From contig NC_057718.1 in assembly GCF_004010195.1 (NCBI RefSeq), forward strand, positions 83,312,345 through 83,369,911: a stretch of 57,567 nucleotides of DNA. The letters are read 5' to 3'. Shown one piece after another: positions 3,180 through 56,800 of the stretch. The notes under the pieces were generated by a model. It saw nothing but the letters and a program-made list of their open reading frames with translations, did no database searches and was not told the DNA's origin. Position 1 is the stretch's first letter; each line of letters starts with the position of its first letter. Made by a program: the position numbers and the translations under genes. Source of the DNA: Chiloscyllium plagiosum. Lineage: Eukaryota.

Positions 3180-4020
3180 GGAATCCTGTGGCATTGTTTC
3201 CTATGTAAATGGAGAAAAACTGCAGAAAGCTGCAACAAAAAGGGACTTAAGGGTATTTGCATACAAAACACAGAAAGATGGCACACAGATGCAGCAGGTA
3301 ATCAGGAAAGTTCATGGAATGTTGGCCCTTATCTCAAGGCTGAAAATGTGTTGCTGGAAAACCGCAGCAGGTCAGGCAGCATCCAAGGAACAGGAGAATC
3401 GACGTTTCGGGCATAAGCCCTTCTTCTGGAACCCCTTATCTCAAGGGGTTGGAGTATAAGAGTAGGCAAGTATTACTGCAATTGTCAAGGCGCTGACGCA
3501 ACCACATCTGGAGTACTGTGCTCAGTTTTGATCTCTTTAGTTAAGAGAAGATATCACTGCTTTGGAGACAGAGAGGGGTTCACTAGGATGATCACCAGTA
3601 TGGGGTGACTCCAACCAGCAAAGGCTAAATAGGCTGGTCTACTCAGTGGAATTTGGAATAATGAGAGGCAATCTCATTGAAATATATAAGATTCTTCAGG
3701 GAAGTGACAGGGTAAGTGCTGAGAGATGTTTTCCCACTTGGGAGAGTCTAGGGCAGGAGACTTGAGATGAGGAGCAAATTCTTCTTTCGGAGGGTAGAGA
3801 GCCTTCCTTTGGGAGTTTGCCCCCACAGCTTTTTGTGGCAGAGTCCATGTGTATATTTAAGGCTAAGATAAATGGATTCTTTATCAGTCAGGGAATCAAG
3901 GGTTACGAAGAAAATGCAGGAAAGTGTACCTGAGGAATGTTGGATCGGCCATGATCCTTTTGAACAGCAGGCCAAGCTTGACTGGACAAATAACCTACAG
4001 CTGTTCCTATTTATCATGGT
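3180..4020 (+). mobile_element. Degenerate CR1 LINE 3' part, interrupted by a 93-bp insertion
   Basis: 'ccacatctggagtactgtgctcagttttg' (PHLEYCAQF), 'atgagaggcaatctcattgaaatatataag' (MRGNLIEIYK) and a CR1-like 3' UTR. Confidence 0.8.
3340..3432 (-). mobile_element. 93-bp PLE-terminus mini-insertion carrying a hammerhead motif, with a 14-bp TSD
   Basis: Exact direct repeats cccttatctcaagg at 3326-3339 and 3433-3446. Minus strand reads CAGAAGA-A-GGGC-ttat-GCCC-GAAA-CGTC (core U4 mutated). Confidence 0.85.
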
Positions 4021-4284
4021 CTTGCTAAATACCAGAGTTCTCAAATTGTGTCTACATTAATAAGTTACCAGCCCATAAAATAAATTTGATGGTCTAACCC
4101 AGAATCAGGGCAAGCTGCATACTAAAGTTTTGCCATTCATTTAGCAGAACTCTCAGATCACTGTGTACCAAAGTCCTGCAAACTCTCTCCACTTAAATAG
4201 AAAAACCTTTTAAATTTTTCCTGCCAAAGTGGCTAGGTTAACATCTCCCATCATTATATCGCAGCAGTCAGACTGTAATGAAAA

Positions 4285-5170
4285 TAAAAGCAAAATTCTG
4301 CAGAAGTTGAAAATCTAGAAGTGAAACAAAAATGGTGGAGAAAGTAAGTATCTGTGGGGAGAGAAACAGAGTTATATTTAGAGGCTGATAGGACATTTTT
4401 TGTGCATTGACAGAGAGTGAGGAGGAACAGATGGTGGTGGTGCCCAGAGCAAAGGATGAAGGGAGTGCTGATGCTGGGAAAAAGAATTATATCTCTGCTG
4501 AGAGAAAAGCAAACAAGTCAGAGTAGGAGAGTTGTTGTGGTTGTAATCTGAATGGAGAACAGGTCATTCTCTGAGGTTGCTGAACTCAAACGTATTGAGT
4601 CCTAGAGAACAAAGTATTTAAATGAAATTTGAGATGTTTCACCTGCTTGTGTTGAATTGAACACTAGCAGATCTAGCATAGGAATGTTAGCATGTGAGCA
4701 AAATGGTTAATTGAAATGACAAGCAATTGTAAGTTCAGGGTTATTCCTATAGACAGAGTGGAGGCACTCTGCAAACTGGTCACCAAGTCTGCATTTAATC
4801 TTACAAATGTGAAGGAGACTGCGTTATCAGCAATGAATCCGGCAGACTACATTGAAAGAAGCACAAGTATTTGGTGGTGGTACCCTGCTGAAGATGTTGG
4901 AAATACATGGTGATCCTTCGAATGTAAGGAGAAGGGGAACCCACCATTGTTTCAGTAAGGAGGAGATGAGGACAGAGTGCAGAAAGTGGGTAAGATATGG
5001 CTGAGGGTCCTGTCAACCACATGGGGAAAGGTATAGATCCTCAATGAGGAAAACGGAGATGCTGTTGGAAGTACCCTAATGAAAGATGAAAGGAACAGAT
5101 GCAACAGAGACAGAAAAACTGGGAGAATGGAAGAGTCCTTGCAGGAATCAGGGTGTCAAGAAATGTAGCC
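4285..5170 (-). mobile_element. Old, degenerate Penelope-like element 3' region
   Basis: Colinear similarity to the better-preserved PLE at 20765-22118 (tail, GIY-YIG region, thumb). Confidence 0.55.
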
Positions 5171-5199
5171 AAGCCAAATTTTTGTTCACTGACTTAATC

Positions 5200-5900
5200 T
5201 ATCACTTTGCAAGATTGTTTCTTCCTCTTGATAATATACTTTCCCAATTATCTTGGTGGCATCAGCAAATGTAGCTACCATACAATCCAAGTCATTGACA
5301 TGGATTATAAATCAATTGAGAATCCTGCGATCTGATTCTTGTGACACCAGTTAACAGCTTGCTAACTGAAAAAGATCACTTTTATTTGTGCTTCCTGCTA
5401 ACTAATTAATCCTTTGTGCATGCTAATATATTGTCCCCTATGCCATTTGCTCTTATCTTGTGCAGCAACCTTTAAAGTGGTTCCTTACCAAGTGTCTATT
5501 GGAAATCCAAGAATGCCCCATCTATAAGTTCTCATTTATCACCTTGCTTATTCTTTCTTCAAAATAACTGAAAGATCAGATAAAATAATTTTCCTTTCAC
5601 AAAACCATGCTGACTTGCCTGATTCTCTACATATTCTGCTACCACCTCCATAAGAATGGATTCTAGTAATTACCCTACTACAGATGCTAGACTAACTGGT
5701 CTACAGTTTCCTCCTTTCTAGAATAAAATGTTACATGTGCTGTTTTCCGATCTGTTGGGAGCCTTTAAAAATCAAAGGAATTTTGAAAGACTATGGCCAA
5801 TACGATGACTATCTCTACAGGTATTTCTTCTTAGCCCCTACGATTTGTCAGCCTTTAGATCGAATAATTATCCCAGTACCTTTCCATTGGCGATGGCAAT
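5200..5900 (-). mobile_element. Degenerate CR1 ORF2 fragment
   Basis: 'ggcatcagcaaat' (FADA), 'ttttcctttcacaaaaccatgctgact' (SQHGFVKGK) and 'gctagactaactggtctacagtttcc' (GNCRPVSLA) on the minus strand. Confidence 0.7.
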
Positions 5901-9774: not shown

Positions 9775-10061
9775 TAAAAACAAGGACTGCAGATGCTGGA
9801 AACCAAAGTCTAGATTAGAGTGGTGCTGGAAAAGCACAGCAGGTCAGGCAGCATCCAAGGAGCAGGAAATTCCACGTTTCGGCAAAAGCCCTTCATCAGG
9901 AATAAAGGCAGGGTGCCTGCAGAGTGGAGAGATAAATGAGAGGGGGGTGGGGTGGGGAGAAAGTAGCATAGACTACAATAGGTGAATGGGGGTGGGGCCA
10001 TGGGGTTGAAGTGTTCCGAGGCGGAAGATGAGGCATTCTTCTTCCAGGCGTCAGTTGGTGA
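9775..10061 (-). mobile_element. PLE 3' end (pseudo-LTR with hammerhead motif and tail), internally deleted
   Basis: Minus strand ATTC-CTGATGA-AGGGC-tttt-GCC-GAAA-CGTG-GAAT followed by '...ccagcatctgcagtcc' tail; same unit as the copies at 3340, 26855 and 27718. Confidence 0.85.
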
Positions 10062-14946: not shown

Positions 14947-14988
14947 ATGCACCTTTGGGGTTGGAGGAAGACCATTGCTAATAGGTTT
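14947..14988 (-). CDS. MAP4K3: MAP4K3 internal exon (42 nt, phase 0-0): KPISNGLPPTPKVH
   Basis: ttccccttacag acceptor, gtaagt donor. Peptide matches the recalled MAP4K3 sequence just before the CNH domain; in frame with the upstream exon. Confidence 0.96.
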
Positions 14989-15705
14989 CTGTAAGGGGAA
15001 ATAAGGGAAAGAAAAGTATATAAATACAGGTTAGGAATAAGAAAATAAAATTATTCCCTAGCAAAGTGATCAAAGTCATCAGTATTCAAAGACAGAAAGA
15101 TTGTCAAACTTCTCATATTTCTGAACCAATTTTACTGCAAAGTCTAAAATGACAACTAACATTCAATCAAATCAGCTTAGTATTTTATAAGCTTTCTCCT
15201 GATCTATTGTTTTTCATCACTTCACGATGTCCCAATGTCATGAATGACATGCCATGTGACTGCCACAATGGTAAACTACCCTTCCTCATCCTTCACAAGC
15301 CTTTAACATAGTTGATCATATTACTTTCTTCCAAAGTTTCTTTACCATGGCTCAACAGGATAGGTTTGCTTTCACCAGGATTCCATTCATATCTCCCCAG
15401 CCAAAACCACAGAATCACCCACAACAGCTTTTGTACTACCTCTGGCATTGTTATTTCTGCTGTCTTGAGAGACCCTCAGCAACACCATCACAAAAAAAAA
15501 GTGCTGATTTCCATTTATAAGCAGGTGTAACACAGTCAACCTCATCATCTCTTCCGTTCCCCTCCCCACTGTTTCTAAATTGTAACTTGACCAAGCTTGC
15601 AGATTGACACATCACAAGGTTCATCGACACACTCATCGACATACTAAAGTTTGGGGCAGATGTTACAGAATCACAATGAGAAAATGTTATCGTCCAAGGT
15701 TTTTT

Positions 15706-16025
15706 TTAGATTAGATTAGATTACTTTACAGTGTGGAAACAGGCCCTTCGGCCCAACAAGTCCACACCGACCCGCCGAAGCGCAAACCACCCATACCCCT
15801 ACATTTACCCCTTACCTAACATTACGGACAATTTAACATGGCCAATTCACCTAACCTGCACATCTTTGTGAATATGGGAGGAAACCGGAGCTCCCGGAGG
15901 AAACCCACGCAGACACGGGGAGAATGTGCAAACTCCACACAGTCAGTCGCCTGAGGCGGGAATTGACCCGGGTCTCTGGCGCTGCGAGGCAGCAGTGCTA
16001 ACCACTGTGCCACCGTGCCGCCCAC
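15706..16025 (-). mobile_element. Young full-length V-SINE (HE1-like) with (TCTAA)n tail
   Basis: Minus strand 'ggcggcacggtggcacagtggttagcactgctgcc...' head, V-domain, CpG-rich; nearly identical to 29744-30056. Confidence 0.92.
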
Positions 16026-16146
16026 TAAAGGTTCTTTAGACATTTTGTAGCAAGTGGCTGAAAACTGTGGCAGTTCCTCAGGTAGTGCTTTACAAACACA
16101 GAAAAGGTGATAGTCCAATGGTATTACTACTTACTATGTAATAGCC

Positions 16147-16665
16147 TAGTGGTATAATCACTAAGCTAATAATTTAGAAATCTAGGTAATATTCTGGAGT
16201 CCTGGCTTTATATTCTGGCATGGCAGATAGTGGAATTTGAATTCAATAATAATCTGGAAATAAGAGTTTAATGGTGACCATGAAACCATTGCCATTGTCA
16301 GGAAAAACTCATACAGTTCACTTATATGCTTTTGGGAAGGAAATCTGCCTTCCTTAGCTGATCTGGCCTCGTGACTCCTCCACAATAATGTGGTTGACTC
16401 TGAACTGCCCTCTGGGCAATTAGGGATGGGCAATAAATACTGGCAAAGCTAGTGATACCCATGCCCCATTATTGCTAGCCTGTTAACCCAGAAACTCAGG
16501 TAATGTTCTGGGGGATCCGGGTTCAAATGACACCAAAGCAGATGCTGGAATGGGAATTCAATAAAAGAAATTAAATCTGGAATTAAGACCTTACTAATGA
16601 CTGTGAAACCACTGTCAATTATCAGAAAAAACACATCTGGTTCATTCCTTTAGGGAGGCAATGAG
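16147..16665 (+). mobile_element. Two head-to-tail copies of a second tRNA-type SINE family (first ~16147-16467, second ~16468-16665, 3'-truncated)
   Basis: Repeated block 'aggtaat(a/g)ttctgg...gcagat...gaattcaataa...aatctggaa.taaga...gaaacca.tg.c.att.tcag.aaaa'; B box 'gggttcaaat' in the second copy. Confidence 0.7.
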
Positions 16666-17444
16666 TTGCAGGGAAAACCTGGAAAGGGCAGGGACACAGA
16701 AGTTGTACCAAATTTTACAGCAGGATATTGATCACAACAATAAATAAACATGACATGTTGTCCAACTATCAGAGGGGAAAACAAATGGCAAGAAACCAGT
16801 GTTTGAGCATCCCCAAAAAGGTAGTAGGAGCTACGGACTGACAACTGATGAGTGTAGTTTTGGGACAGGTGGATAGGTGGGCTGTGTGCGTGTAAAAAGG
16901 GTATCACTGCAGTGGGCTGGAATTTCAAATGTGCAAATTATAGTGTCCATACTTCATGTCCAAATCAAAATTGCCATAATTGAAAGCCAAAATTTGTCCA
17001 TCTTTACTAGGCCAGTTAACAGTAGATTGACAGGCTGTTATGTATTTCACACGGGAATTGCAATAATTACAAATGCTACCAAACAGGTATGGAAAACAGC
17101 AAATGCTTTACCCCAATAAAAAAATAGCATTCCTGAACCAACCAATTACAGAATAGAGATAACTGGTGAAAGAAGTCAACCATAGAGCCCAAATAGGAAA
17201 TGACACTTAAATGAAATGAATGCAGGAGGGAGAATTTCAAACAATTACATTCACATTTCACAGAAATAATAACACCAAATTGATGTACATGTAAGAGATA
17301 TCCTTTCATGCTTTCCTTTCATTCTCTCTGAACAGGAAAAGGCTATACACTGCTATAATAAGAATTATATTTAAAAGGTTGAAAGTATAAAACTATTAGC
17401 AACAGCAAATAACAGAAACTTTACAAAGTAAATTGAATGCTCAC

Positions 17445-17566
17445 GGGGAGATCTTTTTTGTCTTTCCTTGGAGGAAGCCCTGGTGGATAACTACTTCTGT
17501 TTTCGTATAGTTGCTGAGGACTGCTGTCTTTCTCCCCGTTCACCTGGATTGCGCTCACTCCATTTC
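17445..17566 (-). CDS. MAP4K3: MAP4K3 internal exon (122 nt, phase 1-0): (G)NGVSAIQVNGEKDSSPQQLYENRSSYPPGLPPRKDKKDLP
   Basis: ttttctgtttag acceptor, gtgagc donor; open frame, similar to recalled human GNGMSSFQLNGERD...RKEKKDVP; phases fit both neighbours. Confidence 0.94.
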
Positions 17567-17977
17567 CTAAACAGAAAAATGCATTATTTCAGCAAGCACG
17601 AACATGTTGACAGAATTGGTCCTGAAAACACTAAGGTTTAATGTTACATTGCAGAGGCAGCCTGAACCCTCCTAATCACAAACTTAAAAAGGGTGCCCTA
17701 TGACAAGGTACTGTTTACCTTCCTGAGTGTCTACCTTAACACTGACAGGACCTTCAAAAACAAAAACCTATCAAGTTAATCTTCTAGTTGCCAGATTGTA
17801 ACACAGCTTCATTTATGTTCCAGAAAAATGGAAAAGCTAAGACTCTCAATAATGATTAAGATGCGAATTGTCCAGTGTTAATGCTTCTGTTCTCATCTCA
17901 ATGGATGCTTTGTTGCTCCATTTCTTTCCCTAATTAGGAATTCAGGACATAATGCTGATGCAAAATATGACTAGAGA

Positions 17978-18100
17978 CAAAAAAAACCTGCAGATGCTGG
18001 AATCCAAAACAGACAAGCAGGAGGCTGGAAGAACACAGCAAGTCAGGCAGCATCAGGAGGTGGAGAAGTCGACGTTTTGGGTGTAACCCTTCTTCAAAAT
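17978..18100 (-). mobile_element. Isolated PLE terminus (mutated hammerhead motif plus tail)
   Basis: Minus strand TTGAAGA-AGGGT-taca-CCC-AAAA-CGTCGAC...ccagcatctgcag; related to the 9775 unit. Confidence 0.75.
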
Positions 18101-18494
18101 GTGACAGCAATCATACAGAAAAGCTAAAATTTAAAGATGGCTCAGCAATTTCCAGAACAGATTCACCATCCACCAAAATGATGTCAACTAGATTAAAGCC
18201 CAAGGACTGGAAGTAGAAGGGGCAATGCTCTGTTCCCAACATGAAATGTATCAACATCCCAATATTTAAGTCAGACTGAAGATAAACCAGTGGCTTCTGC
18301 AGCTGTGGGCAGATACAAGACTGTGACCATAGAAAATAACATGGCCACATTTTATGGAACAAGAAAATCTGAATAGGTCAAAAAGTATCTTCAAAAGGAT
18401 AACTCTTTTGGGAGGCAAGTATAAACTTATAAGGCAGGGGAATGGGAACCACTGCTTTAATCATCTTTTGGTTTTAAAAGTTAAAAATAAACAT

Positions 18495-19410
18495 TTATAT
18501 AACTGATTTGGATGTGAACATAGGAGGTATAGTTAGTAAGTTTGCAGATGACACCAAAATTGGACAGCAAAGATTACCTCAGAGTACAACAGGATCTTGA
18601 TCAGATGGGTCAATGGGCTGAGAAGTGGCAAATGGAGTTTAATTTAGATAAATGTGAGGTGCTGCATTTTGGAAAAACAAATCAGAGCAGGACTTATACA
18701 CTTAATGGTGAGATGGTGAGGAATGTTGCTGAACAAAGGATCCCTGCAGTGCCAGTTCATAGCTCCTTGAAAGTAGAGTCGCAGGTAGATAGGATAGTGA
18801 AGGCGGCGTTTGATATGCTTTCCTTTATTGGTCAGAGCATTGAGTATAGGAGTTGGGAGGTCATGTTGCAGCTGTATAGGACATTGGTCAGGCCATTTTT
18901 GGAATATTGCGTGCAATTCTGGTCTCCCTCGTCTAGGATGGATGTTAAGAAACATGAAAGGGCTCAGAAAAGATTGACAAGGATGTTGCCAGGGTTGGAG
19001 GATCTGAGCTACAGGGAGAGGTTGAATAGGCTGGGGATGTTTTCTCTGGACCGTCGGAGGCTGAGGGGTGACCTTATAGAGGTTTATAAAATCATGAGGG
19101 GCGTGGATTGGATAAATAGACAAGATCTTTTCCCTGGGGTGAAGGAGTCCAGAACTGGAGGGCATAGGTTTAGGGTGAGAGGGGAAAAATTTAAAAGGGA
19201 CCTAAGGAGCAACTTTTTCACGCTGAGGGTGGTACATGTATGGAATGAGCTGCCAGAGGAAGTGGTGAAAGCTGGTACAATTACAACACTTAAAACGCAT
19301 GGATGGGTATACGAATATGAAGGGTTGAGTGATATGGGCCAAATGCTGGAAATAGGATTAGGTTAGGATATCTGGTCGGCATGGATGTGTTGGACTGAAG
19401 AGTCTGTTTC
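18495..19410 (+). mobile_element. CR1 LINE 3' part (RT C-terminus and 3' UTR), well preserved
   Basis: FADDTK, WAEKWQMEFNLDKCEVLHFG, LYRTLVRPFLEYCVQFWSP, RRRLRGDLIEVYKIMRG, WNELPEEVV. Confidence 0.95.
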
Positions 19411-19559
19411 TATATACATTTGGATTACTGTTTATGACATAACACATTTTGTGGATTAATGAGCTAAGTACAATTTATAAAATCCATTTGTTGTACCTTA
19501 TAAATTTTTCTTCTCGTCTAAAAGGTTCGTATTATTTTCTTGCTTTTTTGTTCAAGTCT

Positions 19560-20620
19560 TAAAGGCATATACTCCTTGCTGGGTTAACACTATGAATACC
19601 AGTCACATCCCATAACTAATCAAAATGATCATTGCATCCCACTTAGCTATTGCGCCTATCATCACCAAACTATATTGGCTCCTAGTCCACCAATATTTCA
19701 GTTAAAATATATATTGTTATGTTCCATTAGGTCTTTAACATACTGTCAAGCTCCCAACCTCTCAGAGAAACCTTGCACAGACTCCCGGCCTCGCTGTGAA
19801 GCCCAGTGTAGAATCTCAGTGAAGCTTGGGGCAGACTCAGCTGCTCCATCTGCTTTTATTTTTTTTCTCGGCTTTAGACTGACTGTAATGCTGAACTTTT
19901 AACTTTATTTTTCTAATTGATGCCTGAGATTCTTTACTTTGCACCTTAATACCTAATAGATTGTGCTGGAAATGGTGACTTTGTACCCTTTTCACTGTAC
20001 TCATGTATCCCTGTACTTGAGTACATGTGACAATAAAACCTAATTCTAATTCTCTTCATAATTTAAAAATAAGGAGTTCCCAATTATGATGGAGGAGAGG
20101 ACATTTTCCTGAGGGTTGCAAGTCTTTGGAATTCTCTTCTACTGAAAGCAGTGGAAATGGGAGTATTGAATTCCTTTAAGACAGAAGTACATCCTTTTTT
20201 AGTCAAAAATCCAAGGTTATTGTGGGTTGGCAGAAATGTGGAGTTGAGGTCAGGAGCAGACCAGACAGACCAAATGTTCTACTCCTGCTCCAATTTTATA
20301 TGCTTGCATTCCTAACTTCTCTGCCTCAACAAACTGTTTGAACTTTGAGTTCCTCCAACTTTAGCCCATTTAACATTCCAAGCTCCCTTTGCAGCATCAC
20401 CAGCAACATATTTCCAACCTCCTACACCCCAACCTGTGAAATTACCTCCAAAAGCCAAACTGCTCCTTCAAGTCCTTTCAACCCGATCACCTAGAGCAAC
20501 ATTTCAGGCAACCCCCCTCAGAATCTCCTACATTTGTTCGTTGTTGGACTTTGTCTGATTGTGCTTCTCTGAAGCACATTGTGTTCCTAATTAAAGTCAC
20601 GACATTAATGTGAGTTGTTA
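19560..20620 (+). mobile_element. Old L2-like LINE 3' end, interrupted by a repeat ending in aataaa/(ctaatt) at ~19745-20053 and a CR1 3' fragment at ~20055-20300
   Basis: 'ctatattggctcctagtc' (LYWLLV, compare L2 LHWLPV). Hairpin gtactca...tgagtac before aataaa at ~20000-20040. 'ctttggaattctcttctactgaaagcagtgg' is CR1-like. Confidence 0.45.
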
Positions 20621-20764
20621 TTGAATTCTTAAATGGTGAGTGGTGATAAATGTTGCCCAATCTGCCCCTCATTCAATATACAATGCATGCATCACCATGA
20701 CATAAAACTCTCAAAGACTCAGATTGGAAATGAAAAACGATCACTTGGACAAGATATTAGAGAA

Positions 20765-27811: not shown

Positions 27812-27859
27812 TATTCTGAGTTTTGTAAACATAGGCTCAATACAGCCAATACACTAACT

Positions 27860-39025: not shown

Positions 39026-40754
39026 CCCCTACTTTATTAATTTGGATTTTTAACACCAATAGAATAAAGATAAAACAGAGAGATTAAGGGTTATTGTTTC
39101 AAATTCTGAGGCAATAAATTTGCATCTATTTCAGTAAGAACGCCGGAAATAGGAGAACATGTAGAATGATACACTTGGCAGTTTAAGAGAAACAGCTAAA
39201 TTAATTCATAATCATTGATGTTAAAATTGGAAAATAAATTGACAGTAACATATGTGGGAGTGGGCAGTGCCTAGAATTGAGCAATAATCAGAATGCTTGT
39301 AACCCATTCGCAAGCAAGGCAAGAGTCTCTCTGAATGTGGAAACAGCATTCAAAACCTGGACCAACTTACAGTTTGAGAGATATCAAAAGTGAAAAAGAT
39401 TGCTTAAAAGAAAACCCATCTTCCAGGGGCAGCTTTAAGCACCAGAGGGATCTGGAGAAATGATTTCTGATTACAACATACAGTCAATTAGGACATTACA
39501 ACAGATAAAGGAAACAAGTTCAAGGAAATTGTCTTCAAAAGTAATTGTTATTTGTATTCAAGGCACAGAGCACTTTATAAGTTGGGATTCAACCAGTCTA
39601 CAATGAGGACAATGAATTCAATGAGGAATCAAAATCCAAAGGAAGTTTCCAATGCAGTGTAAGTATTGGTAAATGAAGGAAGGAGCAATGAAGGCATACA
39701 GTGACAGGGAAGTCTACACTGATGAAAGAATATCTGATGGTGAACTACCAATAACAGCACAGATAAAACTGACTGATCGATTAAGTATCTGGTCATGAAT
39801 AGTTCAGTCCAAAAACACGATAACTGTCAACAGCCTTAAAGTTGCTAAATTGGGAAATTTGTACTTGTCTATTGTTAAAGATTAAGAACACATTTATATG
39901 GGCAGACAAGATTCAATGTTTCTAGTCTAATCGTTACAATTGGGTTACTTTTCTTCATAGTCAGCATAATTACTTCCAGTTCAAAAAGCAATGACTTGCC
40001 TGAAGGGCATGTATAGCGTGTTATGCCAGAAATAAATTTAAAGAAAAATCTGTGTGTATTGGCATTTCGACACAAATGCTTAATATGAGTGTCTGATTGG
40101 TGTGTGTGACATCAGTTTCAACAACATACACTGTTTGCTTGTTTATTTGCATCCTACCGGACAACTTTCAAAATACTGATGATGAAAATGGCCTTTAGCA
40201 TGGGATAATAGCAATCAGTAACCCATTTTGTATCTTCAGGATTTGCATTTTCTTTTGATTTTTGTCACTAGGATGCTAGATTCGTATCAGCTAACCAAGA
40301 AGACAATACTGAAGCTAGATCACTGATCAAAATGAAAATGCAAGTAAATATACCGCAATTCTGGTAGAAGATCCAAGGTTTGATAATTTGAATATACTGC
40401 AACACTTTTCTTTCTTGATCCTAATCAAGATCAAGCTAAACAGTAAAAGTCTGGCTTTCTTGCACCATTTTCAAGGAGAATTGATAGCCATATTTTCCTA
40501 AAAGTCAATCTTCCCCAAGTTCAATATATGCATCTTCTTTCCTCAAATCATAGATTCATATAGCATAGTAGGCCACTTGACACACAATACTTTTACTCGA
40601 AAGTTGGTAGAGGTACAATCAGTTTCACTCTGCAGTAGGTATTGTAGCTATGCATCACTTTAAATCCAACTGTCACGCATCAAAAATAATGACTCTGTAA
40701 AATATTGAGCCAAAGAAAAAGAGCATGTTTAACTAAGGAATCACAAAAGCTCTC

Positions 40755-41140
40755 ACAGAAAAGGTTTACAAGGATGTTGCTGGAATGGGTGGTTTAAACT
40801 ACTGGGAGAGGCTGAATAGCCTGGGATTTTATTCCCTGGAGTATTAGAGACTGGGAGGCAACTGCATAGAGCTTTATAAAATCATGAAGGGCATGTATAG
40901 CGTGAATAGCCAAGGTCTTTTTCCCCAGGGTAAGGCATTCTAAAACTAGAGGCATGGGTTTAAGGTGAAAGAAGAAAGATTTGAAAGAGACCTGAGGGAA
41001 ACTTCTTCATGCAGAGAGTGCTGTGTGTATGGAATGAGTTGCCAGAGGTGGTAAAGGAGAGTACAATTACACCACAAAAGCATTTGGATGGATATAAATT
41101 AGAGGGTTTTGAGGGTTCTGGGCCAAATGCTGGCAAGTGT
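40755..41140 (+). mobile_element. CR1 3' fragment
   Basis: ERLNSLGF..., 'gagctttataaaatcatgaagggc', WNELPEVV. Confidence 0.85.
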
Positions 41141-42240
41141 GAAATGGAATTCAGGGTGAGCTTGCCAATTGGATACATAATTGGCTTGACGGCAGGAGAC
41201 AGAGTGGTGATGGAGGGTTGCTTTTTGGACCAGAGGCCTGTCACCAGTGGTGTTCCACAGGAATCAATTCTGGGTCCTCTTGTGTTTGTCATTTATATAA
41301 ATGATCTGGCTGAGAATATAGAAGGCATGGTTAGTAAGTTTGCAGGTGACACCAAAATTGGTGACACTGAACACTGAAGGAGGTTTTCTAAGATTACAAA
41401 GGGACCTTGATCGTATGGATCAATGGGCTGAAAAATTGCAGATGGAGTTCAATCTGGATAAATGCGAGGTATTGTGTTTTGGTACAACAAGGGTGCAATT
41501 AATTAATTATACAATTAATGGTAGAGCCTTGGATAGTGTTGTAGACCAGAAAGACCTAGGGGTGCAGGTACACAATTCTTTGAAGTTTGCGTTACATATA
41601 GACAGGGTGGTTAAAAAGCAATTTGGTAAGTTTGCCTTCTTTACTCAGTCCTTCCAGTATAGGAGTTGGGAAGTCATGTTGAGGTTATACAGGGTATCGG
41701 TGAGGCCTCTTCTAGAATACCATGTCCAATTCTCATCGCTCAGTTATACGAAGGGTATTATTAAGCTGAAGAAGGTTCAGAAAAAGTTTAGCAGGAACTT
41801 TGCCGGGTATGAAGTTTTGAGTTATAGAGAAAGGCTGGACAGGCTGGGATGTTTTCCACTGGAGTGTAGGAGGTAGATAGGTCACCTTACTGCAGTTTAT
41901 AAAATAATGAGAGGTATAGATAGAGTTAATGATAGTTGTCTTTCCCCCAGGATGGGGGATTTCAAGACTAAGGGTCACATTTTTAAGGTGAGAGGAGAAA
42001 GATTTTAAAAAGACATGTGGCACAATTTTATTTTTACACAGAGGGTGATTCGCATGTGGAATGAAGTTCCTGAGGAAATGATGAATGTGGATAAAAAATA
42101 TTTGGATAAATACATGAACAGGAAAGGTTTGGAGGGATATGGGCCAGCAGCAGGCAAGTAGGACTAGTTTAGTTTGGGATTATGTTCGGCATGAACTTGT
42201 TGGACCGTAGGGTCTGTTTCTGTGCTGTATGACTCTATGA
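41141..42240 (+). mobile_element. CR1 LINE 3' part including 3' UTR
   Basis: PVTSGVPQESILGPLVFVIYINDL, FAGDTK, MEFNLDKCEVL, RPLLEYHVQF; ends 'tgtgctgtatgactctatga'. Confidence 0.93.
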
Positions 42241-42839
42241 AACTGCAGTCTAACAGTCAGTACAAATAACTAAAAACTAGTCTCAAGAAGCTCACCTGAG
42301 TTCACCTGGACAAGGTTAACACCATGGGCTAATTCCTAAAATTCAGTGCACGGTCTGTTTCATAAAGACTTTGCATGTAAATTAGACTTGAATTTGCTTG
42401 CAGCCTGATTTCCTCCTGTTTCTCCAAAAATCCCTGCCCACATTATTCCTTACAAAAATCTAGGAACTTGCCCTTACAATCAGGCACTGAAGGTGAAGCC
42501 ATTGGTAAACAAGAGCTCATATTTTTTAATTAAAAAATTATTAACAGGCTCCTTTAGCACAAGATTTACAAGCATTGGTGTGTTTTGCAAATTCTTTTTA
42601 ATGGGAATTAAGCATATTTCTAGATATACAGAAAAATGTCAGATGTAGAGATAACAGAACAAGTTAGTCTTCCATCGCATAACAATAAAATAAGTTATAG
42701 ATGATAGAGACACAACTCCAATTTTAAACAATATTAAAAACTCAAATAATAAGCTTTAACCATTAAGAAAGCATTCCACAGTTTGAGATAGTCAGCTTCC
42801 CATGGTTTGCAACAGGCTACAATTCCCTATCAGCCAAGT

Positions 42840-43200
42840 CAGAAACTTGTAGGTTTAAACCCTACTCCAGCACTTCAGCACAAACTCTATATATAGCAAG
42901 TCAATAACTTATGTCAAGGTGTCACTTTTTGAAGGAGACATCAAATGAATCCCACGTGCCTTTTCAAATGGTTTCAGAAAATCCCAAGGGTACTTTTCAA
43001 ACAATAAAGAAGTTTGTTTGATATCCTGACCTATGCCCTTACAATCAGACCTTGCAAGATATATAAAATTGCCCATTTAATTATGTGCTGCTTTTGGAAC
43101 ATAACCACTGCTTAAATTGACCATAATTGGATACAACTGACTATATTTCAAAACTAACCTACTGTCTGTGAAGCATTCTGGGTATTATAAATGCAAGTGT
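42840..43200 (+). mobile_element. Old Deu-domain SINE (SacSINE1-like)
   Basis: B box 'ggtttaaaccc', body similar to 25570 and 44010, ends 'gaagcattctgg...ataaatgcaag'. Confidence 0.5.
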
Positions 43201-43457
43201 GTTTCAGTGTATTAATCATAGGCAACACAATGTCAGCTAATTATTTTGCATTTTTCTGATTAATGAAAATTTATGCTTTGAATGCGATTTAATCCTTGCT
43301 ATTCACAGATCTAATACCTAAAAGTAGAAAGGAAATACTCAATTTTTAATATATTTTTTATCTTAACATTTATGAGTGTCTGTTAATACCAATTAAAGTG
43401 CAACTAGAAAAACACATGCATTTCAGTAAAAACAAAAACAAACTATAAAATACTTAC

Positions 43458-43516
43458 TTATTTCCACCTAATAAATAACTGCTCTGGGGTCCTTGGCCAT
43501 ATTCTAGTTGTAGATC
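43458..43516 (-). CDS. MAP4K3: MAP4K3 internal exon (59 nt, phase 0-2): DLQLEYGQGPQSSYLLGGN(K)
   Basis: tttgaatctgcag acceptor, gtaagt donor; matches recalled human DLQLEYGQGHQGGYFLGANK. Confidence 0.96.
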
Positions 43517-44579: not shown

Positions 44580-45208
44580 GTTAAAAAAGCAGGTTATAGT
44601 CCAACAGGTTTAATTGGAAGCACACTAGCTTTCGGAGTGACACTCCTTCATCAGGTGATAGTGAAGAGCTCAATCCTAACACAGAATTTACAGCAAAAAT
44701 TTACAGTGTGATGTAACTGAAATTATACATTGAAAAATTGATTGTCTGTTAAGCCTTTCATCTGTTAGAATAGTGATAGTTTCACTTCTTTCATGTGTAA
44801 ATCACAACCTTTTTTTTAAAACAGTTGCATTCTCGGGTTAGCTGTTAACAATGGTGATAGCTAGACAATGTGTTGAAAGTATTAGCCCCCTGTGTTCTCT
44901 GTCTATGCCATGATGTTTAGATTGATTCTAATCAACGGAGTTCCACATGAATGCATGCAGTTTTTGAGAAATGTACAATGTAACCCTGCAAGTACAAATT
45001 CACCCCACAAAATGTGTGCGCGTATGTGGGTCTTTGTCTGTCTGTGTGTGTGTGTCTGGGTTGGGGGTTATGTGTGTGAGAAAGTGTGTGTGTACAGTGA
45101 GTGCAGAGTGTCTTAAGTCTGTGAGGGGATGCATGTGTGAGTGTCTGTAAGGGTGTGTGTGGGTGTTTGTGTGCGCGTCTGTGTGTCCATGTGTATATGT
45201 GTATAGGA

Positions 45209-45251
<43 letters not shown>

Positions 45252-45323
45252 CGTCGCTCTGAAAGCTAGTGTGCTTCCAATTAAACCTGTTGGACTATAA
45301 CCTGGTGTTGTGTGATTTTTAAC
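44580..45323. mobile_element. Second-family PLE 3' region bounded by inverted pLTRs, containing a (GT)n tract
   Basis: 44591-44640 is the reverse complement of ~45250-45303 (ggttatagtccaacaggtttaattggaagcacactagctttc); gttaaaaa/tttttaac outer ends; (GT)n at ~45030-45249. Confidence 0.85.
44623..44657 (-). ncRNA. Minimal type I hammerhead ribozyme motif, core intact, on the MAP4K3 pre-mRNA strand
   Basis: CAC-CUGAUGA-A-GGAG-uguca-CUCC-GAAA-GC-UA^-GUG: helix I CAC/GUG, helix II GGAG/CUCC, palindromic AGCU in place of helix III. Confidence 0.72.
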
Positions 45324-46322
45324 CCTTGATTCCACTATCCTTCTGAGCTCTATCCATCTCTTTCTTGAAAGTATCCAGAGACTTGGCCTCCACCGCCTTC
45401 TGGGGCACAGCATTCCATATATCCACCACTCTCTGGGTGAAGAAGTTTCTCCTCAACTCTGTTCTAAATGGCTACCCCTTATTTTTAAACTGTGTCCTCT
45501 GGTTCTGGACTCACCCATCAGCGGAAACATGCTTCCTACCTCCAGAGTGTTCAATCCTTTAATAATCTTATGCGACTTAATCAGATCCCCTCTCATCCTT
45601 CTAAACTCAAGTGTATACAAGCCCAGTCGCTCCACTCTTTCAACATATGATAGTCCCGCATTCCGGGAACTGACCTTGTGAACCTACACTGCACTCCCCC
45701 AATAGCCAGAATGTCCTTCCTCAAATTTGGAGACCAAAACCGCACACAATACTCCAGGTACAGTCTCACCAGGGCCTTGTATAGCTGCAGTAGGACATCT
45801 TTGCTCCTATACTCATTTCCTCTAGTTATGAAGGCCAGCAAGCCATTAGCTTTCATTGACTGATGTTAAAGAACACTGCGATCTCGTTGTACTTCCCCTT
45901 TCCCCAACTTGACTCCATTTAGATAGTAATCGGTCTTCCTGTTCTCGCCAAAGTGGATAGCCACACACTTATCCATATTAAACTGCATGTTCCATGCATC
46001 CGTCCATTCACCTAGCCTGTCCAAGTCACCCTGTATTCTCATAACACCCTCCTCACATTTCATCCTGCCACTCAGCTTTGTGTCATCAGCAAATGTGCTA
46101 ATATTGCTTTTAACACCATCATCTATATCATTAATGTATACTGTAAACAGCTGCAGTCCCAGCACCGAACCTTGTGGTACCCCACTGGTCACCGCCAGCC
46201 ATTCCAAAAGGGATCCGTTTATCACTACTCTTTGCTTCCTGTCAGCCAATCAATTTTCAATTCAAATCAGTATTTTGCCCCCAATACCATGTGCGCTAAC
46301 TTTGCTCACTAATCTTCTGTGT
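45324..46322 (-). mobile_element. CR1 LINE RT fragment
   Basis: VTSGVPQGSVLG, INDID, FADDTKL, WNMQFNMDKC, LYKALVRLYLEYCVRFWSP, RRMRGDLI. Confidence 0.95.
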
Positions 46323-49674: not shown

Positions 49675-50160
49675 TAAAAACCAAAAGAACTGCGGATACT
49701 GTAAATCAGAAACAAAAACAGTAGTTGCTGGAAAGGTTCAGCAGGTCAGGCAGCATCTGTGAAGAGAAATCAAAGTTAATGTTTCAGGTCTGGTGACCAT
49801 TCCTCAGGACTGTTAAGAGCTATGAAACGTCGGTTTATATGCAGAAGATCGGTTTGGGGAAGGGGGGCAAGGGTAAACGATAGGTATGGATAGAGCCCAA
49901 GAGAGAACAGTTGAACAGACAAAGGAGTTGAGCACGATCTGGCTGAATTGCTATTAATGGAGACTGACAGTGGCTAACAATAGGGAGTGGGTAATGGCAG
50001 ACCATATAATAACAAGGCCTGGTGTTTGTGTGGTGAGGGACTAGGACATGGGAAAGTTCAGGACCTGAAATCATTGAACACGATATTGAGTATGGAGGGC
50101 TGCATAGTGCTTTTTCAGTTGGAATCCACATGGGGAATGCCTGAGCCAGAGACAATTACT
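49675..50160 (-). mobile_element. PLE 3' end, same family as 20765-22621
   Basis: Tail, decayed hammerhead motif (CTGAGGA-ATGGTC-acca-GACC-TGAAACATTA) and 3' UTR matching 20765-21100. Confidence 0.8.
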
Positions 50161-50429: not shown

Positions 50430-50900
50430 TCCTTGCAGTCATGAATTATCCAATGAAGCTCAACCTAAGTTTGAGAAACAACATCTCACTTTACGGTCTA
50501 TCCAAACCAAGCTCAACTTTAGACTGTAATCCCTGCCCAACTTTATTTTCTTTTCTTTGCATGTTACGATATTACTTGTTTTTACTTTCAGACAGCCATT
50601 CATCTTTCTGCCATTTATTCCTTCCATGAGTTTTTTTTTCTTTACTTGTACCTGTGCTCTCTTTACTCTGAACAGCTGTTTTGTCATTTGGTTTCTCTTG
50701 TACTCTATTCTATCACAGATCTTCCCTTTTGTTCTTTTCCCACCCATTTTAAAACTCAATCTGTTAATTTCTAACTATTCTAGCTCTGAAAGATTATCAT
50801 TGAAAATATTCATAGTCTCCCCAGATGCTGCCAGATCTAAATATTTCCAGTAGTTCTACCTTTATTTCCAATTTCCAGTATCCACAGTATTTGGCTCACA
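50430..50900 (+). mobile_element. Old PLE 3' end
   Basis: 'taagtttgagaaacaacatctcact' (compare KLEEQHLIF), pyrimidine-rich UTR, 'cagatgctgccagatct...atttccagtatccacagtattt' tail. Confidence 0.55.
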
Positions 50901-52865
50901 CACTTTTTAAACTCTGTCCACAACCAACTGAGCAGATATCAAAGACTGAAAATATAAGAACAGTAAGAACTTTGCCACTTGGTCTTTGCATTGCATCATG
51001 TCACTGTAGCTCAGATTTTACAAACCGTCTTCACCTTCCGTGTAATGCACTTGAAGCAATTACCATCATTAAAAATTGGGGGAAAGTATTTGGCAACTTA
51101 TGCCCTTATTCCATGCCTTTAGGGAGAGTTTGGAATTTAAACCAGCTTGATTTTGAAAATGAGCTTGAGGGTTTACAATTAGTTTTATAGACATTCTATG
51201 TTTTGTGATTTCCTAATACTGTATTAATCACAAGGAAGTGTTGGCTGGCTCATAATAAGTTGCTAACTTGGCACTGACCATAAATGAAGGAACTTGGGAA
51301 GACTGCAAATAACCATTTGTGAAGAACAGTCAAATCATTTGCATTTATTGAATTAAATTTATGTTTAAATTTGAATAGTTGTCCATTTCTTTTGAGGCAT
51401 CTTTTCAAAATACAAGTATTCTGATTTGAACTTTTCAGCAACCTTTCATAAAAGTGAAAGCAACTGTGATTTTACGAATGTTACTTTTCACTTAAATGGA
51501 GGCTGTCCAATGGCTTAACATGAAAGAAATTGTGCAAAAATCTCTAAAATGATGAACTATCAAACATGAAAATTTACTTACTCAACAAAAGAAAGTCAAC
51601 TTTGAAGTGTTCATGCACCCAGCTGCTAACTATCCTCAGGCTAAATAAGCATGGTTCAAAACCCAAAATGTAGCAATGGTTCCAGCACCGCTGAATGGTA
51701 TTGAAGAGGTTTATCTGAGTCTCTCATTCAGCACATTGATTTTAGTACATTTTCAGATGTGAATTTTACATTCGGAAAAGCTGTATTTAAAGCAAGCATT
51801 CAATGGTAATTGTGTATTCCTAGAACTACTGCTACTTCTCAAATATATTGCAGCTAACCTTACATGTTGCTACATCCAGAGAAATATCTTTGTCTTTTGG
51901 TTAACTGACATTCAGTATGAAACAAACACTAATACTACACTAGTATTTTTATTGTAATCTTTTATCTTATTTTTCTATTTTTTAAACTTGGTTTGTTTTT
52001 TGCTTAAACACATAATTAACAATTTATAGTGTTGTTGTCTTGATGATTTTAAGATGGAAACTACTTCAAAAGAAGTTTGGTTTTCATTGAGTGAAAATAG
52101 AGTCAAGGGGCAGTTCTATTTTACCAGCTGAAACACTGAACTCTTGTATGGTCATATTGTGATAAGTTCTGATCAATCAATCTAATAAATTAAAACCTGA
52201 AGAACTACTGACTGTCTAATACAATAACCAGTGGCTCTTGGAAACTCATGTTAAGACTTGTAAACTTGTCTATTGAACATCAAGCAAGAACACTTCAATG
52301 AGCCTTCCCCCAAAACATTTAGCATTTTGGGAATTATCTCTGTTCAGAAAGATTAGGATTAGTTTTAAAATGTGATGACTCGTGCAGATAGCAGTGCAGA
52401 AGGGCTGAGAAAATGATTAAAGAGAAATAGAATTTGAGAATAAACTAGTGACAAACCTATCAACAAACTGCAAAAAGAAAAAGAACAGTGAAAACAAGTG
52501 TGGGTGCATTGCAAGTGAATTTATAAGAATTTTTAAATGGAGAGTAGAGAAATGGCAGAAAAACTAAACAAACACATTGTGCCTGTCTTCATGGGAGACA
52601 TATACTAAGTATTTCCCAGATAATGCAGAAAATAGTGTAAACAAGGAAGTTCAATACATTAACATTAAACATTGCTAAAGAGAGAGAAAGTCATAGCTTT
52701 CCATCTTGCATCGAATAGGACTGACAAGCAAAAGACAAACCCTGCAAAGCTGATACTAATTTATATAGCCTGAGAAGCTGTGCATTGGTTGGACTGTAGT
52801 TGTCACAAACCTGATAATCTTAGTTGGCTAATTAGATTAAGATCAAATGTGTAGAATTTTCACAA

Positions 52866-54225: not shown

Positions 54226-55699
54226 TCTGTCCTGGCACAGTATACCAAGAGCACCTTTCATTATCAGTCAGTTGGTGTGCTCAGGAGACTGCACGTGAGG
54301 GTTGAAGAACTAAATATCAGGCATCCCAGCTTGACTCTTTCTGCCCTGTTGCATTATGTCTTACTCCTGGAATGAGAGGCACAGATGTATCGAGAGATGG
54401 AAGTGAGCTGGCACAGTGATTACTTCTGGTGTAAATGGGGAGGTATCACAAGTGAATAAGTAGGCAGAGGGCAAGCAAGGTTACACCGTAAGACCAAAAA
54501 AACATAGGAACGGAGTAAACTGCTTTGGCCCCTCTGGCCTGTTCTATCATTCAACAGGATTGTGGTTGATCCAACATTCCTCAAGTCCACTTTCCTGTAA
54601 CTCTTGATTCCCCTACTGATCAAGAATGCACTCTTACATTCCAAACCCTTTGAAATAAGGGTTGGTGCTGCTGGGCATTCTGATGAGTGATCTTCAAATA
54701 TGATAAGATGTTGCAGGCAATAGTAAAAGCAGCAGAGCATGAGCTTGGTGGGAGGTGGCTTCCCTATCAGATATAGTGAGTGTGAGACAGTAGAGAGAAG
54801 ATGGTGGCACTTCTACTGGGAGAGTTAGGACAGCTGTAGAACCATTTTACGTTATTGGGCATTCCTCAGACAATTGAGACTCTACTGATCTGGAGTCAAT
54901 CTCGAACCAGGTTTTCAGGTAGCAGCCTCCATTTCCAGTTCGGGGGAGCAGGATGCATGATCACTACACTACACCATCAAGCAGAACCTCCAGGTCCCAG
55001 CCCACAATGCAGAGAGACAATTCTCCTTTCTCTGTAGTGTCTGAGGCAAATGACAGGAACCACGCAGAGCAGTTCTGGACTGAGAATGCTTGTCGAGGTC
55101 CATAACCATCTTTTAAAGATGGCACCAGTGTCACAGATGCTGGTCAATTCCTGGACGTCTCCACTGTTCTGTGTACAGTGATTGGTATAATGGAGCTAGA
55201 ATTGGAAAAGGGCAGCACCACAGAGGCAGCATGGATAGTTAATGAGATGGGTTTGATAAGATGTGGTAAGAAAATCCTCTCAGCCTCAAGGAGAGAGGCC
55301 CTCCATGAAACTGATACTTAGGTTCAGTAAAAACATGACTCAGCCCTAGGTCTTTACCAAATATACAATATTATCCAAGAAGTTGAGGTAATCTTAAACA
55401 GATGTGGATGTTGTATAACCAGCTGATATTCTGCTCAGTAGTACTGCTGATCAATTGTTATACCAATGTCAAAACACTCATGTGAAGTCAGAACGCAAAA
55501 GTAATAAACCAATATTAAGTCCGAGTTAATGCTGACTGAAATGCCATATTCAGGTTCACGTGCATCTCCAAATGTTGTTGATAATTGTCGTGTCAATTTT
55601 CTACATCAATGTAACAAATACACACTAACATGACTGTGAAGTCTAGATTAAATTGTTCATTTAACACAGCAGAAAAGAAAATTAGCTCCCTATTTTACC

Positions 55700-56370
55700 A
55701 CCACAAATTCTGTCCCTTGGAAGCAACTGAGCCTGAACCAGACCATTTGCAAACTTAGTGTTGCATTTGGCTTTCAAAAAAAGCTTCCTGCCACACATCT
55801 ATTCAATTACCAAGAAAACCTATTTGTAGCTACATAACTACACCCCAATTTACCTATGTATCACCTCCTGTTCAAACTACTATGCATCATCATTTCTACA
55901 ATCTTCTGGTTGACCTCTCATTTTATGTGCCATGCAAACCTGAGCTGTGCACATCAAGTCTTGTTCAGTCATTACCTTTGTAGTCACAGACCTTTACTTG
56001 CTCCACTTTCAACAACAAATGAATATTTAAATCCTCATTCCTATTTTCAAATTCTTCTATGATCTCACCTCTATAATTATCTCCAATTCTCAAGATCTTT
56101 GTGGTCCTCTCACTCTAACCATTTGTAATTCCCAAATTATATCTGTTCCACCATTGTCAGCTGTGTATTCACCAGCCTAAGCTTCTATGCCTTTGGATTT
56201 TTTTTAAACACTATTTTCACCTCACTCTCCTCTTTTCAGTTGCTTTTAAAAATCCACCTCTTTCTAAGTTTTGATCCTCTTTTCTAACATGTCCACATGG
56301 CTCAGTGTCAAATTTTGTTTTGTCCCATGGCATTCGAGAATATCAAAGGCAGTATATGAATGCAATATTT
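55700..56370 (+). mobile_element. Old L2-like 3' end
   Basis: Similar to the 19560-20620 pattern ('ccaccattgtcagctgtgtattcaccagcctaagc...ctttgga...aaaggcagtatatgaatgcaa'). Confidence 0.4.
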
Positions 56371-56439
56371 TTGTTTTCCTAGTTAATAAATATGATACAT
56401 TCTAATAGTCATTTGGTAACATAATACATGAGTTTTGTT

Positions 56440-56800
56440 TAAAAAGACGACATTTTTGTCAAAGCCTTGTGTCTTGTGCCCATCAGGACAATTCGCAAGC
56501 AATACCAAAGCAAAATAGAAAACAACATTGATACCGTATGGGAGGCAAGTGCTGATTGACTGGCAAATAGACATTGCTAAATAGAGGTACTGCCAGAGAA
56601 TGCAGTAATGGAATGACGAAGACAAACATTTATGTAATGCACCTTAATGCAGGCCTGGCTGACAGTTGTAACATGGTTCAGTGTAATTTTTCAAAATCTG
56701 CATCATTTAGGAATTTCTATCCAGTTGCAAAATTGCATCTAATATTGTACGCTGTTGAGAGATTTGTAGATATAGACTTACAGTACCTTGCTTATTGTGA
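56440..56800 (-). mobile_element. Third-family PLE 3' end with decayed hammerhead motif (56457-56490)
   Basis: Minus strand TGTC-CTGATGG-GCACAAGACAC-AAGGCTTT-GACA; a related decayed motif lies at ~52691-52722. Confidence 0.4.

Follow-up and report, generated by a model that had tools for sequence, protein, structure and literature searches.

The hammerhead motifs in the MAP4K3 introns of the shark Chiloscyllium plagiosum are most readily explained as independent, mostly truncated insertions of Penelope-like elements (PLEs) at ordinary density, present in both orientations, decaying without selection and likely not cutting the pre-mRNA, a reading to which we assign a probability of about 90%. 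The window (the whole stretch of DNA analyzed, 57,567 nt) is entirely enclosed by MAP4K3, which lies on the minus strand and whose exons span window positions +252,342 to −43,141. A profile search of the window yielded 15 hammerhead-bearing copies of PLE end pieces (pseudo-LTRs, pLTRs), 10 sense and 5 antisense, all of them in MAP4K3 introns.

Hammerhead-bearing copies in the window

The copies, the PLE coding remnants and the MAP4K3 exons (approximate tblastn limits; whole set, 14947..43516) are as follows.

1..744, minus strand: PLE coding remnant, C-terminal part of the RT; relatives carry PF00078, PF26215 and PF01541
3341..3431, minus strand (sense): family A pLTR stub; core change U4>A; a 14-bp direct repeat resembling a target-site duplication on either side
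9817..9903, minus strand (sense): family A pLTR stub; cleavage-site change C17>G; 1-nt deletion in helix II
18011..18100, minus strand (sense): family G pLTR stub; C3>T, G12>A (CpG)
20751..20842, minus strand (sense): family C pLTR, at the 3' end of a PLE body that has decayed; G12>A (CpG)
21088..22109, minus strand: PLE coding remnant, decayed and frameshifted; its translation contains the C-terminal part of the RT, a cysteine linker and a GIY-YIG-like motif
22480..22576, plus strand (antisense): family C, inverted partner of 20751..20842; G12>A (CpG)
26854..26945, minus strand: family A, sense half of a fold-back that has no spacer; C11.1, C15.2 and C17 changed (CpG); palindrome broken
26943..27029, plus strand: family A, forming the antisense half of that fold-back; broken palindrome and G8>A
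27723..27811, minus strand (sense): family A solo stub, core intact; C3 at 27809; ACGU palindrome; 14-bp flanking direct repeat
31542..31627, plus strand (antisense): family D, decayed; profile E = 6e-15
44581..44659, minus strand (sense): family B, core intact; C3 at 44654; AGCU palindrome
45249..45324, plus strand (antisense): family B inverted partner, 5'-truncated, lacking the CUGANGA half; adjoins a (TG)n run
49717..49811, minus strand (sense): family C; catalytic boxes intact; palindrome G16.2>A (CpG), helix II damaged
50816..50855, plus strand (antisense): family C tail, weak partial match (E = 0.003)
52665..52723, minus strand (sense): strongly decayed remnant of family D with 6 differences in the core; match weak (E = 2e-4; first profile, E = 0.5)
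56403..56496, minus strand (sense): family D; 3 core differences
43516-43460, 35272-35234, 34957-34901, 33179-33138, 23223-23047, 17570-17445 and 14994-14947, minus strand: MAP4K3 exons

The motifs reported in an earlier note on this DNA proved genuine: all 13 places match profiles of hammerhead-bearing repeats, 12 of them at E ≤ 4e-18 and the one at 52700 weakly, and the same profiles gave no match in the reversed gene set. The list was nevertheless incomplete, having omitted the plus-strand copies at 31542 and 50816, so that the window count is 10:5 and not 10:3, and the copy that it placed at 45250 lacks the CUGANGA box. A strict descriptor search recovered the 2 intact motifs (C3 at 27809 and 44654, minus strand), compared with none in 20 dinucleotide shuffles, but when one core mismatch was allowed it gave 3 motifs against a shuffle mean of 0.85; the decayed copies thus rest on homology, not on the descriptor. 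An Rfam scan of the window produced 7 matches at E ≤ 10, none of them to a hammerhead family; the miRNA-family matches at 26.9 kb correspond to the fold-back hairpin.

The population had been described as dense. The 46 gene intervals sampled (1.85 Mb) contain 633 copies, which would predict 19.5 for the window; with 15 observed, the density is not unusual and lies below the average [P(≤15) = 0.18]. These intervals, a first sample of 28 plus 18 new ones, represent 0.05% of the genome and are mainly from kinase, myosin, HECT and USP genes, whose strand was assigned from colinear exon matches and not from an annotation. Genome-wide, 93,494 exact intact cores of family A and 22,591 of family B were counted, i.e., at least 116,085, with none in the reversed-pattern control; the numbers expected per window size are 1.51 and 0.37, respectively, and one of each was seen.

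Families and relation to known elements

Five profile families are represented in the window (A, B, C, D and G), rather than the approximately three proposed earlier. The CUGANGA and GAAA boxes, U16.1 and H17 are present in the family consensus of all profiles, while the complete motif, including palindrome and helix II, is found in 2 of the 15 window copies. The extra A after CUGANGA was confirmed in 181 of 189 family A, 63 of 64 family B and 68 of 84 family C copies, and also occurs in 12 of 13 copies of family G; families E and F have a T at this point, and family D, in our reading, has no extra nucleotide. The most frequent first pair of helix II is G-C in families A, B, C, G and E. There is no helix III loop, and the sequence between 15.1 and 16.1 is palindromic (ACGU in A, C, G, E and F, AGCU in B, and AAGCUU in D).

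As the earlier note had observed, helix II differs among families with pairing kept, but it comprises 5 bp, not 4, in families B (GGAGC/GCTCC) and C (GGGTC/GACCC). Helix I also varies with pairing kept, its first pairs being C-G/U-A in A, C-G/A-U in B, U-A/U-A/G-C in C, and A-U/C-G in E and F. Among the double changes at helix II pair 2, 8 of 9 in A, 4 of 5 in B and 16 of 25 in C give Watson-Crick pairs; these counts stem from related copies, not from independent events. The helix covariation between families, whose absence would have spoken against the earlier note, is real.

The assignment to minimal type I hammerheads of PLE pseudo-LTRs is borne out by the boxes, the palindromes and the PLE coding remnants. 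The remnant at 21088..22109 sits between the two family C copies (20751.. and 22480..), and that at 1..744 continues past the window start into a cysteine linker (CX4CX2C, upstream of the GIY-YIG), a broken GIY-YIG and an intact family A hammerhead located 568 nt before the window. None of 8 candidate PLE fragments from the window matched a Pfam family, and the PLE link is based on the Pfam domains of relatives together with motifs visible in the translations. Location in the PLE terminal repeat follows for families A and C from adjoining RT/GIY-YIG remnants, and for G from downstream sequence that it shares with A and C; this evidence from coding adjacency covers A and C (G indirectly), not B or D.

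The kind of motif is already known, namely the minimal hammerhead of PLE pLTRs (Cervera and de la Peña 2014, PMC4209133). In common with the metazoan motifs described there, the shark copies have CUGANGA and GAAA boxes, an unpaired nucleotide between 9 and 10.1, a G10.1-C11.1 pair, a palindromic 15.2-16.2 segment and a short helix I; within one genome they fall into several consensus families, among which compensatory changes are seen, and they occur mostly as single copies of truncated PLEs, with opposite-strand pairs 100 to 700 bp apart. They differ in their host, a shark. The main text and two supplementary files of that paper contain no shark term (one further supplement and the figures lay outside the search), and no literature on shark or elasmobranch PLE hammerheads was found by title, although supplements could still contain one. 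They also differ in number, the shark having at least 116,085 cores that are exact and intact whereas the descriptor of that study gave ∼9,000 for Xenopus and ∼4,000 for coelacanth, and in helix II, which has 4 to 5 bp in families A, B, C and G and 7 to 8 bp in Schistosoma. Family D departs from the published motifs in its 2-bp helix II and 6-nt palindrome.

Several features resemble those reported for Neptune/Nematis-type endonuclease-positive PLEs (Craig et al. 2021, PMC8557442): 5' truncation, complex insertions, an inverted 5'-truncated copy adjoining the upstream end, a copy (here of family B) beside a microsatellite, and an RT followed by a C-terminal GIY-YIG, with a CX2-5CxxC linker that is common to Neptune and Nematis. 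A placement of the shark PLEs in this group may be taken as a lead only, given that remnants, not full-length elements, were compared. Non-LTR retrozymes, which have been found in one chondrichthyan genome (Li, Clavereau, Pollet 2026, bioRxiv 10.64898/2026.07.22.740005), likewise carry type I hammerheads related to those of PLE pLTRs. Retrozymes are tandem units, whereas those of the window are stubs scattered singly or head to head and attached to PLE remnants; no head-to-tail tandem units were found in the window, where same-family, same-strand copies lie at least 866 nt apart with unrelated DNA between them. Like the amniote hammerheads of RECK and CTCL (PMC6155905), the shark copies are type I motifs in the introns of a protein-coding gene. 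The amniote motifs, however, are described as conserved across amniotes and as resembling canonical motifs of retroelements, while the shark copies are minimal, multicopy and decaying.

Orientation and decay of the copies

The proposed preponderance on the pre-mRNA strand did not hold. The 10:5 sense:antisense ratio of the window (P = 0.30) turned into 31:39 in the rest of MAP4K3 (41:44 for the whole gene) and 295:338 in the 46 intervals (208:226 in the first 28 and 87:112 in the 18 new ones). With 46.6% sense copies overall, a small sense deficit was observed (gene bootstrap, 44 to 49%). It was also seen among copies without a paired neighbor (118:156, P = 0.025; 43% sense; gene bootstrap, 38 to 49%), in the same direction in both samples (85:104 and 33:52), and it was absent from control repeats (CR1-like, 225:206; SINE, 89:77).

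Such figures would fit weak purifying selection, in which unmasked sense copies, by occasional cleavage or disturbance of the pre-mRNA, would gradually be lost and antisense copies come to predominate slightly; in agreement with this, tandem retrozymes avoid introns in Xenopus according to the preprint by Li et al. (2026). We nonetheless regard this explanation as unlikely. In family A, which is young and the most intact, no deficit is seen (140:131 in all and 50:44 among unpaired copies), and its exact intact cores in the gene intervals number 34 sense and 25 antisense, 25 per strand being predicted from the genome mean. Furthermore, fully intact copies among the unpaired ones are as frequent in sense (20/84) as in antisense (24/111; P = 0.73), and the deficit lies mostly in the old and most decayed family C (61:94), with a P value of 0.01 that is uncorrected for the 7 families and several subsets examined.

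The consensus of family C bears a branch-point-like word, a pyrimidine tract and a CAG. The possibility that these signals act as a cryptic 3' splice site and so produce the deficit of that family was rejected, because the ratio was equal in copies with (29:45) and without (27:40) that feature.

Most window copies are damaged (13 of 15 are not intact), as had been noted, with CpG decay among the main causes: CpG core positions change most (19% in sense and 28% in antisense copies), compared with 6% and 8%, respectively, for non-CpG core positions. In the first 28 intervals, sense cores carried fewer mismatches than antisense cores (1.02 versus 1.49, P = 0.011) at equal flank divergence, and the difference persisted in the pooled data (1.00 versus 1.35, P = 0.015). 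This could suggest that some sense cores are kept intact since cleavage or structure in the host RNA is useful, and intronic canonical hammerheads have indeed been domesticated in amniotes (PMC6155905). Domestication is, however, very improbable here. The single test fixed beforehand for the 18 new intervals did not replicate the effect (0.95 versus 1.05, P = 0.61), MAP4K3 showed none (1.36 versus 1.33), the difference disappeared when palindrome and helix II were also required, and fully intact copies were 56 of 197 in sense and 59 of 227 in antisense (P = 0.59) in the 46 intervals. CpG change in unrelated repeats, moreover, also depends on the strand and leans the same way (CR1-like G>A, 46/146 sense versus 61/135 antisense; SINE C>T, 177/748 versus 105/618), SINE G>A having no strand difference, and the families of the intact copies are young ones.

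The strong form of the reading in the earlier note, a pre-mRNA enriched in sense self-cleavage modules whose cores were broken by selection, drew on 10 of 15 window copies being sense and 8 of those 10 damaged, and can be dismissed almost entirely, given the ratios and density above, the damage in all 5 antisense window copies, and the absence, in the 46-interval sample, of the strand or mutation bias on which it hung, sense cores being no more damaged than antisense cores in either sample and CpG decay accounting for much of the damage.

Cleavage potential in the pre-mRNA

The claim of many potential self-cleavage modules was likewise overstated, since only 2 of the 10 sense copies are intact and these are unable to pair with each other: they differ in palindrome (ACGU versus AGCU) and in helix I, and they lie in different introns with four exons between. 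Under the insertion reading, several PLE families, each with a minimal hammerhead in its terminal repeat, would have inserted independently into the MAP4K3 introns. According to the literature, such a motif, having no helix III of its own, would need a second same-family copy through the 4-nt palindrome, a partner that the tandem transcript of the PLE itself would supply; in the host pre-mRNA this partner would be missing, broken or masked. In the 27809 copy the insertion boundary trims the 5' strand of helix I to 1 contiguous pair, and the 44654 copy is predicted by folding to have 29 of 46 nt paired to its own upstream mirror copy. Similarly, 35 of 48 nt of the family C copy at 20751..20842 are predicted to pair with the 22480 copy, and the arms of the 26854..27029 fold-back (96 nt, 81% complementary) form a hairpin with a minimum free energy of −144 kcal/mol. 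The window hammerheads are therefore predicted, as the most likely outcome, to be inert in the pre-mRNA. Single-cell poly(A) RNA over 22900-29500, a region outside which the 44654 copy lies, gave 220 reads in one run, all partial on the stretch and on repeats and none on the exon, and 0 in a second run, and is uninformative either way.

A same-family, head-to-head antisense neighbor within 1.2 kb was found for 151 of the 295 sense copies of the gene intervals, compared with 15 for the tail-to-tail arrangement, and half of the sense copies would thus be zipped into a hairpin by an upstream mirror-image neighbor. There is a slim chance that unmasked sense hammerheads cleave pre-mRNAs with a same-family partner in cis or in trans and are purged, hence the 43% sense among unpaired copies, and that the fold-backs act as a safety catch under which the number of intact cores could rise above 100,000. 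If so, the shark genome would constitute a population-scale test of hammerhead activity in vivo.

As read here, the MAP4K3 locus is an ordinary one, and the useful product is the count, at least 116,000 cores that are exact and intact. In the sampled genes, intact copies are equally common on the pre-mRNA strand and on the opposite strand, which speaks for minimal PLE hammerheads doing almost no harm in host introns. This agrees with the weak in vitro activity in the literature, a Schistosoma minimal hammerhead reportedly showing no cleavage as a monomer and low cleavage as a dimer (PMC4209133), and it limits the idea of an activation by general host factors.

Hammerhead copies and the elements that carry them

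MAP4K3 exons flank the window on both sides, so that the entire window lies inside this gene and its minus strand is the pre-mRNA (sense) strand. In the 3.56-Gb genome the window occupies 83312345-83369911, and tblastn plus a genome search placed minus-strand exons of MAP4K3 between window +252,342 and -43,141; the top matches of the exon at 23047-23223 (minus) were bamboo and carpet shark MAP4K3, with 98% identity to Chiloscyllium proteins.

Hammerhead numbering and double-hammerhead geometry follow established knowledge, together with the Fig. 1 legend. The descriptor search proposed in the earlier note was run with strict settings (both catalytic boxes, helix II of at least 3 pairs, palindromic 15.2-16.2, UH) and found two intact motifs in the window, 27809 and 44654, both minus-strand; 20 shuffled sequences contained none. 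An Rfam scan of the window gave no hammerhead match. Seven profile HMMs (families A to G), made from copies in genomic DNA of the same genome, detected 15 window copies belonging to five families, and none in a reversed-sequence control. All 13 places listed in the earlier note were recovered, 45250 lacking CUGANGA and 52700 being a weak remnant, and two plus-strand copies were added (31542 and a weak partial one at 50816). Several families were indeed present, although five rather than about three. Family comparison bore out the differences in helix II with pairing retained, which extend to helix I, and the extra nucleotide after CUGANGA. The window motifs share these features with the minimal hammerheads of Penelope-like elements (PLEs) of Cervera and de la Peña, for which these authors describe family-specific paired helices I and II and the extra nucleotide (PMC4209133). 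They are real, of a known kind and in an ordinary arrangement.

The old family D is atypical: its helix I has 5 bp and its helix II apparently just 2, the extra nucleotide is missing, and the palindrome (AAGCUU) is 6 nt long; a 28-nt pattern of it has 62 exact copies genome-wide. Its window copies are:

56403-56496, minus strand, family D copy
52665-52723, minus strand, family D copy
31542-31627, plus strand, family D copy

The window hammerheads belong to PLEs, and a link to coding bodies was seen for families A and C but not for B and D. Relatives of the open frame at 1-744 (minus) carry RT, PF26215 and GIY-YIG domains, and its DNA extends beyond the window start, where a CX4CX2C linker and then a broken GIY-YIG lead up to a family A hammerhead that is intact. 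At 21088-22109 lies a comparable decayed body, which terminates in the 20842 copy of family C and has an inverted copy of that family upstream. Pfam gave no matches on the window PLE fragments themselves. A 422-base N run (2055-2476) lies inside a PLE remnant near the window start.

Two solo stubs are flanked by 14-bp direct repeats. In 46 gene intervals of the same genome, window included, 151 of 295 sense copies had a mirror copy (same family, opposite strand, head-to-head) within 1.2 kb, against 15 in the control. Such an insertion pattern has been described for endonuclease-positive PLEs (PMC8557442). Among head-to-head pairs within 3 kb, the estimated C3 positions were at most ∼40 nt apart in 59/89 (A), 16/30 (B) and 20/31 (C).

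Fold-back junctions in the 46 intervals concentrate at the hammerhead 5' edge, except in families E and F, where no such clustering was found, and the solo stubs 3431 and 27811 likewise start 2 to 4 nt ahead of CUGA. The clustering may mark a reverse-transcription stop or turn-back site.

Other repeats in the window are:

10510-13873, plus strand, decayed L1/Tx1-like non-LTR element (APE endonuclease PF03372, RT PF00078)
56865-57567, minus strand, second 3' part of an L1/Tx1-like element in opposite orientation, 90-98% complementary to the first
18492-19363, 30600-31266 and 41290-42075, plus strand, and 45456-46249, minus strand, decayed LINE 3' fragments, presumably CR1-like as judged by their translation rather than by a library match

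Density and strand orientation

The density of hammerheads in the window is ordinary, and not high as had been claimed. Genome-wide, family A has 93,494 and family B 22,591 exact intact cores. At that frequency a window would hold 1.51 and 0.37 of them, and this one holds a single core of each family. With decayed copies included, the 633 copies in the 46 intervals (1.85 Mb) predict 19.5 in the window, compared with the 15 observed. The shark copy number is about tenfold above those in the 2014 paper (PMC4209133), counting methods being different. Our literature searches found no report of shark PLE hammerheads; PMC6155905, PMC6765202 and bioRxiv 10.64898/2026.07.22.740005 were also drawn on.

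The gene intervals were bounded by colinear exon matches (kinases, myosins, HECT ligases and USP proteases) and represent 0.05% of the genome; they may include nested genes. No sense-strand preference was observed. The ratio of 10:5 in the window is compatible with chance (p=0.30), and sense:antisense counts were 31:39 in MAP4K3 outside the window (41:44 in the whole gene), 208:226 in the first 28 intervals and 87:112 in the 18 further ones. Among descriptor-intact motifs the ratio was 37:36 for the first 28 intervals and 7:8 for MAP4K3.

There was instead a slight sense deficit, a result against the neutral reading: the sense share was 46.6% over the 46 intervals (gene bootstrap, 44-49%), copies without a mirror partner numbered 118 sense versus 156 antisense (p=0.025), and CR1-like and SINE repeats were 52% and 54% sense. 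The deficit resided mostly in old family C (61:94, p=0.01 uncorrected), and young family A had none (140:131), a distribution that purging driven by ribozyme activity would not be expected to leave. Immediately 3' of its cleavage site, the family C consensus carries a branch-point-like word, a pyrimidine tract and CAG; a splice-acceptor cause of its antisense excess was rejected, since CAG retention leaves the ratio unchanged. The small deficit may be due to chance. CR1-like LINE pieces in the introns of the intervals showed no antisense bias (225:206).

Core damage on the two strands

Damage was scored in the 424 of 633 copies spanning the core plus 30 nt beyond. Core and flank do not provide a clean test, because subfamily differences inflate the flank figure and detection favours better cores; the clean comparison is between strands. 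Within the core, changes affected 19% of CpG positions in sense and 28% in antisense copies, and 6% and 8% of non-CpG positions; in the flank, the values were 39% and 37% for CpG and 14% and 13% for other positions. Sense cores were never the more damaged, which contradicts the proposal that selection has broken them. The data lend no support to selection acting on sense cores.

The first sample gave the reverse signal (1.02 core mismatches sense versus 1.49 antisense, p=0.011), which a test fixed beforehand did not replicate in the new sample (0.95 versus 1.05, p=0.61); the pooled samples still differed (p=0.015). When palindrome and helix II were required, no strand difference was found (56/197 sense and 59/227 antisense intact). 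A degree of strand dependence in CpG change, with the same direction, was also present in unrelated repeats and is a plausible cause of the better-kept sense cores.

In the CR1-like and SINE copies of the intervals, C>T and A>G were more frequent on the coding strand. T also outnumbered A on the strand taken as coding in 25 of the first 28 intervals, and both observations are signs of transcription-linked mutation asymmetry in the shark.

Potential for cleavage

According to the literature, PMC4209133 included, a single motif is unable to form helix III, and cleavage by the dimer is weak. Neither palindrome nor helix I is shared by the intact copies 27809 and 44654, and four exons lie between them. 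The former retains one contiguous helix I pair, and its sole relative nearby on the same strand (26945) is damaged and lies within a single predicted hairpin (pair 26945/26943, -144 kcal/mol). In the intact motif at 44654, 29/46 nt were predicted to pair with the upstream mirror copy, and in the motif at 20842, 35/48 nt; no such pairing was predicted for 49811. Since the intact copies are mismatched, far apart, poor in helix I or mirror-paired, cleavage of the pre-mRNA by the window hammerheads appears unlikely from these models.

A HECT-ligase intron (interval C1c) holds a sense-strand tandem of two intact family A hammerheads, 50 nt apart (sense positions 13554 and 13604). Nothing in the window is nearly as good a candidate for dimer cleavage as this pair. 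A tandem transcript of the PLE itself would supply the partner copy, and in host pre-mRNA mirror copies would pair with the sense motifs and mask them.
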